64,000 bases of DNA from Promethearchaeia archaeon (lineage in GTDB: Archaea > Asgardarchaeota > Lokiarchaeia > Sigyniarchaeales > SOKP01), in the NCBI GenBank assembly GCA_029856145.1, contig JAHQWK010000029.1:1-64000 (forward strand), given 5' to 3'. This document shows positions 53,663-58,231 of the stretch, piece by piece; position 1 is the stretch's first letter; every line of letters begins with the position of its first letter. The translations under genes were made by a program, and so were the position numbers. The notes below the pieces were generated by a model. That model ran no database searches. It was not told where the DNA came from and saw nothing but the letters and a program-made list of their open reading frames with translations.

Positions 53663-56041
53663 ATGAAGGTGAACAAAAACTTGAATGAACGAATTAGTAA
53701 ATTACGAACACAAAGTCGTGAGGCAGTTCCTTATCTTTCGTTAGAACGTGCTCTATTACTAACAGAATTTTATAAAACTGGTGCGGCTCATAAGTTTTCT
53801 GCTCCAATTGCCAGAGCTAAAGTATTTAAATATATATTGGAAAATAAAAAGATCTGCATTAATGAAGGCGAGTTAATTGTTGGTGAACGTGGTCCAGAAC
53901 CAAAAGCAACACCCACTTATCCAGAAGTATGTTGCCATAGTTTAAAAGATTTAGACATTCTTAATTCACGTGATAAAATTTCATTTAAAGTATCTGAAGA
54001 TACAAAACAAAAAGCAAAAGATATTATCATTCCATTTTGGAAAGGACGATCTATTCGCGATAAAATCTTCTCTCAAGTTGATAATGAGTGGATCGATGTT
54101 TATGAGGCGGGAATTTTCACAGAATTTATGGAACAGAGGGCACCTGGCCATACTGTAGCGGGAAAGAATATATGGAAAAAAGGATTTTTAGATTTCAAAC
54201 AAGAAATAAAAGAAAGTATTGATGGCTTAGATTTTTACAATGATCCTGATACATATAATAAAAGAGAACAACTAAGAGCAATGGATATTGCCGCAGATGC
54301 AATAATTAATTTTGCCAATCGTTATGCTAAAGAAGCTAATCGACTGGCAACCATTGAATCAAACCCAATTAGAAGAAGAGAGTTAGAGAAAATATCAGAA
54401 ATATGTTCTTATATCCCCGCACGAGCACCTAGAACTTTTTGGGAGGCACTCCAACATTATTGGTTTATTCATTTAGCTGTCATAACTGAATACAATACTT
54501 GGGATTCTTTCAATCCAGGACGCTTAGATCAACACCTTTATCCATTCTACAAAAATGATATTGCAAATGGGATAATAACAATGGATGATGCTTTCGAATT
54601 ACTTCAAGCGTTTTGGGTGAAATTTAATAATCAACCAGCTCCTCCCAAGGTTGGTGTTACAGCAGAGGAAAGCAATACTTATACTGATTTTTGTAATATA
54701 AATATTGGAGGATTGAAAGAAGACGGTTCTGATGGAGTTAATGAGATGTCTTACATTCTCCTAGACGTAATTGAAGAAATGCGGATATTACAACCAAGTA
54801 GTAATGTTCAAATTAGTAAAAAGACCCCAGATAAGTTCTTAAAACGAGCTCTTGAAATTGTGAAAACCGGTTTTGGCCAACCTTCCGTTTTTAATACTGA
54901 TGCCATCATTCAAGAATTAACAAGGCAAGGAAAATCTATAATAGATGCACGCAATGCGGGAGCAAGTGGGTGTGTTGAGGCAGGCGCATTTGGGAAAGAA
55001 GCCTACATTCTCACAGGATATTTTAACTTAGTAAAAATTCTGGAAGTTACACTTCATAACGGTTTTGATTCTCTAACTAAAAAACAGATTGGATTGAAGA
55101 CTGGTAATCCTACGATTTTTGAAACTTTTGATGATTTCTTTGAAGCTTATACTGAACAAGTTAAGCATTTTGTAGATATTAAAATTAAGGGAAATCAAAT
55201 AATCGAACGTATTTGGGCAAAAAATCCAGCACCGTTCTTGTCAATACTGATCGATGATTGTATTAAGAATGGGAAGGATTATAATGATGGTGGCGCAAAA
55301 TATAACACTTCTTATATACAAATTGTAGGAATGGGCAGTATTACAGATTGCTTGACATCTTTAAAGTATAATGTTTTTGATAAAAAAATCATATCTATAG
55401 AAGAATTGATAAAAAGCTTAGAGAATAATTTTAGTGGATACGAGGATATTCACCAGAAATTACTCTATAAAACTCCTAAATATGGGAATGATGACGATTA
55501 TGCAGATTCAATAACCGCTCAAGTTTTTGAAATTGTTTATGATGCAATTGATAACCGTCCTAATACTAAAGGTGGTGTACATCGTATTAATCTACTTCCT
55601 ACAACAGCCCACATTTACTTTGGTCAAGTAACTGGAGCTACTCCAGATGGGCGTAAAGCATATGCACCTTTATCAGAGGGCATATCTCCCGTTCAAGGAA
55701 TGGATATTAATGGTCCAACTGCGGTTATAAAATCTGCTGGAAAAATTGATCATTTAAGAACTGGAGGAACCTTATTGAATCAAAAATTTACACCCCATTT
55801 TCTCTCAGATCAAAATAGAATTAATAAATTAGCTCACTTAATTAGAGCATATTTTGAAATGAATGGCCATCATATTCAATTTAATGTCGTCTCAGCAGAT
55901 ACTTTACGGGCTGCACAAAAAAATCCAGAAAAATACAGAAACTTGATTGTGCGAGTAGCGGGGTATAGTGACTATTTTGTGAATTTAGAGTTAGTTTTAC
56001 AGGATGAGATTATTAAAAGAACTGAACATACTGTAATTTAA
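53663..56041 (+). CDS. hypD: Glycyl radical enzyme, trans-4-hydroxy-L-proline dehydratase-like
   Basis: PTYPE, MEQRAPGHT, WDSFNPGR, SGCVE, LPTT.H, RVAGYS glycyl motif. Confidence 0.8.
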   Translation: MKVNKNLNERISKLRTQSREAVPYLSLERALLLTEFYKTGAAHKFSAPIARAKVFKYILENKKICINEGELIVGERGPEPKATPTYPEVCCHSLKDLDILNSRDKISFKVSEDTKQKAKDIIIPFWKGRSIRDKIFSQVDNEWIDVYEAGIFTEFMEQRAPGHTVAGKNIWKKGFLDFKQEIKESIDGLDFYNDPDTYNKREQLRAMDIAADAIINFANRYAKEANRLATIESNPIRRRELEKISEICSYIPARAPRTFWEALQHYWFIHLAVITEYNTWDSFNPGRLDQHLYPFYKNDIANGIITMDDAFELLQAFWVKFNNQPAPPKVGVTAEESNTYTDFCNINIGGLKEDGSDGVNEMSYILLDVIEEMRILQPSSNVQISKKTPDKFLKRALEIVKTGFGQPSVFNTDAIIQELTRQGKSIIDARNAGASGCVEAGAFGKEAYILTGYFNLVKILEVTLHNGFDSLTKKQIGLKTGNPTIFETFDDFFEAYTEQVKHFVDIKIKGNQIIERIWAKNPAPFLSILIDDCIKNGKDYNDGGAKYNTSYIQIVGMGSITDCLTSLKYNVFDKKIISIEELIKSLENNFSGYEDIHQKLLYKTPKYGNDDDYADSITAQVFEIVYDAIDNRPNTKGGVHRINLLPTTAHIYFGQVTGATPDGRKAYAPLSEGISPVQGMDINGPTAVIKSAGKIDHLRTGGTLLNQKFTPHFLSDQNRINKLAHLIRAYFEMNGHHIQFNVVSADTLRAAQKNPEKYRNLIVRVAGYSDYFVNLELVLQDEIIKRTEHTVI

Positions 56042-56129: not shown

Positions 56130-56203
56130 TATGTACTTATTCAGTACATAAATTTATAAATGAATATTTCTTTAATTAATATATGTACATGATCGGTACA
56201 TAT
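56130..56203 (+). promoter_or_regulatory. Archaeal promoter with two palindromic operators
   Basis: TATGTAC-ttattca-GTACATA (56130-56150), TATA box TTTATAAA (56153-56160), TATGTAC-atgatcg-GTACATA (56182-56202); GAGGAG RBS at 56227-56232. Confidence 0.8.
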
Positions 56204-56241
56204 TATATAATTTTAAAATAAAAAGTGAGGAGAGAAAGAAA

Positions 56242-57006
56242 ATGAGTAAAGTAGAATTTAAAGATGTTTTCAAAATTTTAGTCCTTGGAGCACCTGGAGT
56301 CGGTAAATCCACATTAATTGAAAAATATTCTGAGAAACTTTTTCAAAAAGATGTAGCACCAATTGTTGGTGTAAATTTTTTTCTTAAACAGGTAACCATT
56401 AATGGAAATGATTATAGACTTCAGTTCTGGGACTTTTTTAATGAAGAAAAATTCGGATCACTTCATACATTATATTATAAAGGTGCCTCAGCTATTTTTT
56501 ATGTGTTCGATTTATCTAAACCTGAAACATTTGATTATCATCAAAAATGCCTCAACAAAGTGTGGAATGAGGGTAAACTAAGTAAATGCCCTGTACTTTT
56601 AATTGGGAATAAACTTGATTTAGTTGAGAATGAGAAAGATATTGATAGGAAAAAATATCATGAATTTGTTAGAAAAGAAGGTTTATTAGGATATATAGAG
56701 ACTTCAATAAAAGATATCGATAGTATAAAGAAAGAAGTTCTAAATATTATTCAAAGCACTTTAAAAAAGAGTTATCAAGTTAAGTTTTTAGTAAATAGCA
56801 AAGAATTGGAGGATATTAAAAGATTTGCAAAGTTTTCTCGTCAAAAGCAATCTGAGTTTATTCGTACAGCAATATGGGAAAAAATAAGGTCAATGGATCC
56901 TCTTTCAATGACTAAGAGTTTAAAGAAGGAAAAAATAGAAGAAAAAAATTTAAGATTAAACGAATTGAAAAGAATTCGAGAATTATTAGAAAGGTTAGAA
57001 AGCTAA
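56242..57006 (+). CDS. Ras/Rab-like GTPase domain fused to C-terminal ribbon-helix-helix DNA-binding domain
   Basis: GAPGVGKS, WDFFN, NKLD, ETS; residues ~175-216 YQVKFLVNSKELEDIKRFAKFSRQKQSEFIRTAIWEKI fit the CopG/MetJ-type RHH pattern. Confidence 0.8.
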   Translation: MSKVEFKDVFKILVLGAPGVGKSTLIEKYSEKLFQKDVAPIVGVNFFLKQVTINGNDYRLQFWDFFNEEKFGSLHTLYYKGASAIFYVFDLSKPETFDYHQKCLNKVWNEGKLSKCPVLLIGNKLDLVENEKDIDRKKYHEFVRKEGLLGYIETSIKDIDSIKKEVLNIIQSTLKKSYQVKFLVNSKELEDIKRFAKFSRQKQSEFIRTAIWEKIRSMDPLSMTKSLKKEKIEEKNLRLNELKRIRELLERLES

Positions 57007-57166
57007 GAATTTTAGTAAGGCGAATAAATAGTATTTAACTTTAAAGCATTTTTCTTTTTTTTTATAGCTATTTCTATTTAATAAGATATAAATTCAAGAA
57101 GTCTATTATGGAAATGTAAATTTGGAGATATAATTCGATATTGTTAATAAAAAAATAGAAAAGTAC

Positions 57167-58231
57167 ATGAACTTCGATTCAAAATTTAATAAAGGCAACC
57201 TTATTGATAACATTCCAGTTGATGAAAATTCCTATAGGGCATTAATTCAATTGTTAAAGAAAAAAACAGGGTTAAATTTTGAATATTATAATAAATCATT
57301 CATAGAAAAGCGTATAAAATCACGTATGATAAGAATCCCGTGTAAAACACTTAGTCAGTATTACGAATATATATCATCAAACAGTGCAGAAATTAAAAAA
57401 TTCACTGAAGGGTTTACAGTAAATTACACTTTCTTTTTTCGCGATTATGATGTTTTTGAAACATTTCAAGATTTATTTATTCAAGGTTTATATGTAAACA
57501 GAAAGGATATAAAGAGTAATATAAGACCAGATCCTGCTAAGTTGGCTAAATTTCATACGAAAACTAATGCGGTTAAAAATTTGCATAAAATTAGATCTTT
57601 AACTGAAAAACCTGCAAGATATTACATAGATATCTTTATTTTCCTCAATCAACTCTCTTATTATCGAAAAATGAAACGCCCAAAAAGTACAAATAATTGT
57701 ATTAATATTTGGTCATGTCCTTGTGCAACAGGAGAAGAACCTTATTCTATAGGTATGATTCTTGATAATCTTGAAACCCAAGTTCCACGTTTTCCTGATT
57801 ATAAAATCGTAGCATCTGATATAGCTCCTGAAGCAATTGAAAAAGCTAATATTGGTGTTTACACGGACGATTCAATGAAAGAAATTTCAGACTATTACGA
57901 TAATAAATATTTTACTAAACAAAAAACTCATTTTGGACATACTAATATCATAAAAGAAAGGATAAAAAATAAAATTGAATTTGTAGTAGAAGATGTTACA
58001 AAAGGTCACCAAATGCCCTATAAGTATGATATTATTTTCTGTAGGTATCTATTGATTTATTTTAACCGAGAAAATAGACATAAATTTCTAAAAATTTTAG
58101 AAAATCAATTAAATGAAAATGGAATTTTAATTTTAGGAAAAACTGAAACCTTATTTAATTCATGGGGGAGTTTACAATTAATCGATACAAATAATCGAAT
58201 ATATATCAAATCTCATTCTAAAATCAATTAG
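57167..58231 (+). CDS. cheR: CheR-type protein-glutamate O-methyltransferase with insertion
   Basis: RIKSRM, TVNYTFFFRD, IWSCPCATGEEPYS, ASDI, DIIFCR.LLIYF, LGKTE. Confidence 0.88.
   Translation: MNFDSKFNKGNLIDNIPVDENSYRALIQLLKKKTGLNFEYYNKSFIEKRIKSRMIRIPCKTLSQYYEYISSNSAEIKKFTEGFTVNYTFFFRDYDVFETFQDLFIQGLYVNRKDIKSNIRPDPAKLAKFHTKTNAVKNLHKIRSLTEKPARYYIDIFIFLNQLSYYRKMKRPKSTNNCINIWSCPCATGEEPYSIGMILDNLETQVPRFPDYKIVASDIAPEAIEKANIGVYTDDSMKEISDYYDNKYFTKQKTHFGHTNIIKERIKNKIEFVVEDVTKGHQMPYKYDIIFCRYLLIYFNRENRHKFLKILENQLNENGILILGKTETLFNSWGSLQLIDTNNRIYIKSHSKIN

Follow-up and report, generated by a model that had tools for sequence, protein, structure and literature searches.

The window, i.e. the whole 64,000-nucleotide stretch of Promethearchaeia DNA that was analysed, carries one gene for a predicted Rab-like G domain followed by a ribbon-helix-helix (RHH) domain and a terminal helix, in the order given in an earlier note on this DNA, and the upstream region has two predicted operator boxes (Table 1). 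The boxes are exact copies of TATGTAC-N7-GTACATA with a spacing of 52 bp, located where the note had placed them, and within box 1 the GTAC half-sites are 11 bp apart centre to centre. The number of boxes expected by chance in the window is 0.12, even allowing two mismatches, and the 3.55-Mb genome has no TGTAC-N7-GTACA sites other than these two. The neighbouring genes encode a glycyl-radical enzyme (HypD; 53663-56041), which scores 1311 against the NCBIfam cut-off of 1100 for trans-4-hydroxy-L-proline dehydratase, and a CheR-type methyltransferase (57167-58231) with a long inter-domain insert and no adjoining chemotaxis genes. No activase was seen next to the HypD gene. In most loci the RHH gene comes directly after the HypD gene, and the CheR-type gene is in the slot at 23 loci. 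ARAGORN also predicted a tRNA-Sec (G000 C8 near 12915).

Table 1. Features of the pseudo-GTPase-RHH locus (window coordinates; predicted from the evidence in the last column).
Feature	Position	Strand	Evidence or remark
Operator box 1 (predicted), TATGTAC-N7-GTACATA	56130..56150		exact sequence match, ortholog conservation
TATA box candidate TTTATAAA	56153..56160	+	sequence, ortholog position
Operator box 2 (predicted), TATGTAC-N7-GTACATA	56182..56202		over expected transcription start ~56183
Shine-Dalgarno-like GTGAGGAG	56225..56232	+	sequence; GAGG/GTGA-like words before ortholog starts
Gene, candidate pseudo-GTPase-RHH fusion, 254 aa	56242..57006	+	ORF call, Pfam, homologue search
Rab-like G domain, aa 8-171	56263..56754	+	G1/G4 kept; G2 Thr, G3 Gly/Gln and G5 Ala lost
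Ribbon-helix-helix domain, aa 178-218	56773..56895	+	profile matches, dimer model, alignment
C-terminal amphipathic helix, aa 237-253, conserved, after variable linker	56950..57000	+	dN/dS
T-tract, archaeal terminator-like	57049..57063	+	sequence

The gap between the box core and the TATA candidate is 5 bp, with box 1 over the BRE position. Among the 30 two-box orthologs box 1 always ends 5 bp before a TATA-like word, 26 have TTTATAAA or TTTATATA at the TATA position, and the spacing between the boxes is 52-53 bp in 27. Given standard archaeal geometry, which we take to apply here and from which the positions are inferred, box 1 would lie over the BRE position and box 2 over the start site. 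Calibration against tRNA promoters or against where TATA falls genome-wide gave no usable information, and a sigma-70 scan is not applicable to this promoter. The conservation of GTAC-N7-GTAC upstream of GTPase-RHH orthologs, put forward beforehand as a test, is complete: the pair is kept in all 33 distinct fusions with a G domain, 31 of which have two exact boxes; in the other two, one box is exact and its partner has a single mismatch. The 506,522 flanking bases of the same loci have no further copies. Downstream, the stop codon is followed by a T-tract in the nine loci inspected (9/9), which suggests a monocistronic transcript. Contigs retrieved with this stretch from two runs labelled metatranscriptomic, probably DNA, span 56212-56998 at 99% or more, and they show neither transcription nor transcript ends.

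The RHH pattern seen earlier at residues 178-218 is borne out by profile searches, since all 24 aligned members match NikA-like (best E 3e-8) and DUF6290, and 14 of them match RHH_1; this protein itself has weak RHH-clan matches (DUF6290, NikA-like) at residues 175-238, below the Pfam cut-offs. It has the superfamily pattern of an alternating strand, two helices and S/G-x-S-E-F-I-R, and the recognition strand residues Q179, K181 and L183 are invariant in 32 of 32 orthologs. Neighbours of the domain in the Atlas are RHH clusters (a lead only). As anticipated, the C-terminus was modelled as an RHH, i.e. an antiparallel homodimer with an ipSAE of 0.50 (best control 0.00), a level that 20 of 30 solved homodimers attain, as does 1 of 23 monomers, and one that may stem from likeness to solved RHH dimers. 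The runs share at least 88% of contacts (pLDDT 72), and the closest contacts are between residues 178-184, antiparallel around K181 (pairs 11-9, 12-8 and 10-10), with helix B packed on helix B. The monomer model of the C-terminus has no strand, as expected for an RHH (pTM 0.39), and its best PDB match (Z 4.6) is helical noise; a sequence search found no solved relative. The C-terminal domain is single-copy in the 3.55-Mb genome; an apparent paralog at C4:25346 was discarded as an artefact of two adjacent ORFs.

In the full-length AlphaFold model a Rab fold precedes helices at 186-198, 203-217 and 239-253; the model has no confident contact between the G domain and the RHH, and the pLDDT of the linker is below 50. 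The dN/dS of the G domain, which is under purifying selection, is 0.25 and that of the RHH 0.17; the terminal helix (0.16) is conserved relative to the linker (0.61). Of the terminal coiled coil proposed in the earlier note the conserved helix stands, while the models give it low confidence and place it outside the confident dimer interface; it is possibly an oligomerisation helix.

The G domain matches Pfam Ras over residues 11-172 (E 3e-31) and Foldseek returns Rab matches; Atlas searches gave ordinary GTPase clusters only. All motifs read previously (GAPGVGKS, PIVG, WDFFNEE, NKLD and ETS) are present, as is the paralog at ~43750 with intact switch motifs (PTVG/WDIAG). The switch motifs of the fusion are indeed non-canonical, with the amendment that Ile at G2 is a minority state: Lys or Arg is found in 30 of 32 orthologs (K27, R3, I1, T1), and Thr in 52 of the 57 G domains of this genome. 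G3 Gly is present in none of the 32 orthologs vs 53 of these 57 G domains, and the position of the catalytic Gln is D, N or E. To these changes, as listed earlier, the loss of G5 Ala has to be added (retained in 1/32; mostly Thr or Met), and the guanine-stacking Phe is Leu in 18/32. This protein alone among the 57 G domains lacks both G2 Thr and G3 Gly. The parts that are kept are G1, GxxxxGK(S/T), and G4, NKxD (N in 32/32, K in 28/32, D126 in 30/32), with G16, G21, K22 and N123 invariant in 32 orthologs. The hallmarks of a canonical switching Rab (G2 Thr, G3 DxxG with Gln, G5 SAK and a prenylation Cys) are absent, the chain ending in RHH and helix with no C-terminal Cys for prenylation. A truncated, degenerate G domain is found separately at contig C11:18075-18512.

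Genetic studies of Ras have established that changes at Thr35, Gly60 and Gln61 abolish gamma-phosphate switching and hydrolysis, and that changes at Phe28 and Ala146 weaken nucleotide binding and speed exchange. The pattern of kept and lost motifs suits a weak, non-cycling pocket that might follow nucleotide concentration. The G domain is a candidate pseudo-GTPase, possibly of class ii/iii (nucleotide bound, switch impaired), and its motif pattern fits the definition of these proteins (PMC5593906). Among pseudo-GTPases, RGK proteins act without regard to nucleotide (10.1101/2022.06.21.496996).

When residues 165-254 were used as query, 52 proteins were retrieved, almost all of which have the same G domain, and an exhaustive profile search gave 52 representatives at 50% identity; in the databases the orthologs are named just 'Rab family GTPase' or 'GTP-binding protein'. 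Of 400 genomes of the phylum, 41 have strong matches, all of them from one order of Promethearchaeia, and within the genus itself the family is present in 32 of 53 other genomes, nearly always as one copy. Several records labelled Hod-, Hermod-, Thor- or Odinarchaeota are the same as genomes placed in this genus or its family (e.g. L013 = G077), so that these labels do not widen the range. Three records need a comment. At L089:346-1176 (P0003) the front half of a canonical G domain is joined at NKLD to the back half of the present gene, and since it lies on a single 1.3-kb low-coverage contig we regard this chimera as a misassembly or recombination product. One assembly has a frameshift between G domain and RHH (L006:1-546) and a dehydrogenase gene has an in-frame TAA (L071:2789-3613), either of which could be a sequencing error.

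The slot between the HypD gene and the CheR, reductase or HAD gene holds, depending on the genome, G-RHH, G-accessory-RHH, LRR-accessory-RHH or bare accessory-RHH forms, the HypD gene being absent beside the bare forms. The accessory part is a 55-aa module (R-x-x-V-M-x-E-L-K ... H-x-x-G-x-Y-L-x-K-P) located before or after these RHH domains (alignment A3; e.g. L069:4109-4648); this genome has none and no Pfam family matches it, and assignment as WH2/RPEL-like was rejected, the resemblance being loose and by eye only. The G-RHH, LRR-RHH and bare RHH forms in the slot all retain the boxes, as do bare forms in other neighbourhoods; LRR forms with a single box keep box 1, and in bare forms the gap between box and TATA is down to 1-2 bp. 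Moreover, the motif varies with the recognition strand: Q-K-L is paired with GTAC at 11 bp and F-K-M with GATC repeats spaced 9 or 11 bp, while in an LRR form whose strand reads Q-K-V the flanks of the box are altered. Since the co-varying lineages are related, these represent a few independent changes of motif and strand, not dozens. Judged from these sequence comparisons, the box motif is linked to the RHH recognition strand and not to the GTPase. Because LRR-RHH and bare RHH forms occur at the same locus with the same boxes, the GTPase would be a swappable input or cargo, and the circuit would work without it.

Several related loci deserve mention in their own right. A paralogous RHH family with the F-K-M strand has tandem GATC repeats upstream (L079, L080, L085-L088) and offers a second testable operator. 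Five GTAC half-sites with an exact 11-bp period precede a stand-alone RHH of another family (L074:3911-3958), a spacing suggesting polymerisation along the DNA. In some loci a conserved ORF of 47-57 aa separates the operators from the LRR-RHH gene (L025:4790-4933, L027:4761-4928, L029:4821-4994), and in one lineage a bare accessory-RHH gene is directly followed by an actin-like gene, identified by eye (L061:742-1743, L062:5490-6491, L072:4332-5333).

In a tree with paralogs of this genome as the only outgroup, the fused G domains all fall into a single clade (SH-aLRT 100) with a stem of 1.1 substitutions and short branches thereafter. The forms without the accessory module are a clade nested within it (SH-aLRT 99), which probably means one fusion followed by one loss of the module. 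Among 95 longer homologs (longest 460 aa) LRR and G domain are alternatives on the RHH and never occur together, i.e. no Roco-type chain was found. The tree of the RHH alone (44 columns) did not resolve, and we therefore make no claim about the order of the LRR and G fusions.

With respect to targets, the genome motif scan that the earlier note had expected to define a regulon yielded none: with a PWM built from 47 sites the boxes score 29 bits, and the runner-up, which lies within an ORF, reaches 13 bits and stays below control level. When 54 genomes of the genus were compared, all matches that recurred fell inside coding sequence, and half-sites are depleted upstream of genes (86 vs 199 shuffled). 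In genus g2 the boxes lie on either side of the TATA of a gene for a short-chain dehydrogenase, which directly precedes the G-RHH gene, and an enzyme gene can thus be under the control of the RHH fusion.

We propose that the protein is a self-repressing one-component transcription factor with the G domain as tuning input, a reading to which we give a probability of about 0.55. Autoregulation, as suggested in the earlier note, is strongly supported by the RHH dimer model together with the conserved palindromes of fixed geometry and the co-variation of motif and strand among paralogs. Binding of the fusion to its boxes is very probable, and repression is considerably more likely than activation; archaeal RHH proteins are known to repress their own genes through promoter occlusion (PMC5569661). 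In the proposed mechanism one RHH dimer would read each GTAC half-site by its antiparallel ribbon (Q179/K181/L183), such that two dimers, one helical turn apart, would occupy each box. Protein bound at box 1, over the TFB/BRE position, and at box 2, over the start site, would block initiation; five turns separate the boxes, and the terminal helix may bridge them. The G domain would represent an exchangeable N-terminal input that neither hydrolyses nor switches, and it rather likely binds guanine nucleotide, probably weakly. Its ligand state, set by the nucleotide level or by a partner from the small-GTPase network, would tune oligomerisation or operator binding; such allosteric coupling we consider slightly favoured. 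The points against this reading are that LRRs replace the G domain, or that it is missing, at the same locus, that the model has no confident G-RHH contact, and that RGK pseudo-GTPases are a precedent for action without regard to nucleotide. With only its own gene as target in this genome the sensor would report to itself alone.

The same swapping at one locus would also be expected if the RHH feedback only fixed the level of a cargo, with pseudo-GTPase or LRR acting off the DNA without allostery, as decoy or scaffold for GEF/GAP-like partners of the ~55 other small GTPases. The absence of a regulon and the T-tract straight after the stop agree with this, and the lowest-rmsd Foldseek matches are GEF-bound Rabs (2.4-2.8 Å vs 4.1-4.8 Å for GTP-analogue- or effector-bound forms), a weak hint of an open, GEF-binding shape. 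However, cargo-free bare RHH forms retain the same boxes, and the P-loop and NKxD are invariantly retained although a pure scaffold could do without them; we consider this explanation unlikely, if the strongest of the alternatives. The fixed spacing between box 1 and TATA, the retention of box 1 in single-box LRR forms and the dehydrogenase gene in genus g2 could instead point to a wider regulon with degenerate sites, or to activation from box 1 at low concentration and repression from box 2 at high concentration, as in some archaeal regulators. Given the outcome of the PWM scan, the confinement of recurrent matches to coding sequence, the depletion of half-sites and the 1-2 bp gap in bare forms, which fits occlusion better, this is distinctly improbable. 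Least probable, in spite of the patchy family and the member frameshifted in its assembly, is that another factor binds the boxes, the fusion being a near-neutral accident whose GTPase is decaying, as the boxes accompany the RHH across neighbourhoods and change when the strand changes, and as purifying selection acts on the G domain, in which the Thr-to-Lys change is conserved.

Returning to the self-repressor with a tuning G domain, NikR and MetJ are ligand-controlled RHH regulators that combine RHH output and ligand sensing in one chain. The present protein differs in having as input an N-terminal small-GTPase fold, for which LRRs can be substituted, and in that no regulon was found. CodY, the GTP-sensing regulator of low-GC Gram-positive bacteria, has a large regulon and is built from other domains, namely GAF and winged-helix; the likeness is that in both cases a transcription factor may read out the GTP pool, and no homology is implied. 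The Asgard Rab-like small GTPases share the fold, with 27-36% identity to the paralogs in this genome. In common with CopG/Arc/NikA-type proteins and the archaeal SvtR, AvtR and F55 (PMC5569661), the fusion has a predicted strand-helix-helix dimer, paired short boxes and sites at its own promoter. It departs from all of these in having a 165-aa Ras-fold domain before the strand, a chromosomal and syntenic location, the GTAC-N7-GTAC motif and scores below the Pfam cut-offs. With RGK and Rnd pseudo-GTPases (PMC5593906, Table 2) it has in common the Ras fold, diverged G motifs and perhaps retained nucleotide binding, while it is archaeal, fused to a DNA-binding domain, of separate origin and has Lys/Arg at G2. 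There are precedents for autorepressors of the RHH type, for RHH proteins under ligand control and for pseudo-GTPases; in the literature searched, which leaves most subscription journals outside, a G domain-RHH fusion that unites them is not described.

To our knowledge operators have been defined for hardly any Asgard transcription factor. For this regulator there is a precise predicted site, the paralogs supply a strand-to-motif code, and the protein is small and amenable to tests in vitro. A further-reaching version, that the Ras fold was retuned as a low-affinity sensor of guanine nucleotide or of GEF/GAP partners that switches the RHH repressor directly, with GTPase and LRR exchanged as sensors on the same module and operator, we hold as tentative, at somewhat less than even chance. 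If the G domain does control binding, a Ras-like fold would be the sensor of a one-component regulator, for which we found no description. The narrow range marks the fusion as a lineage invention and not a step toward eukaryotes; a small GTPase and an LRR, both eukaryote-like domains, are here reused by Asgard cells as modules plugged into a regulator of bacterial type, and if the sensor reading is true, small-GTPase signalling would be wired directly to transcription within one protein.
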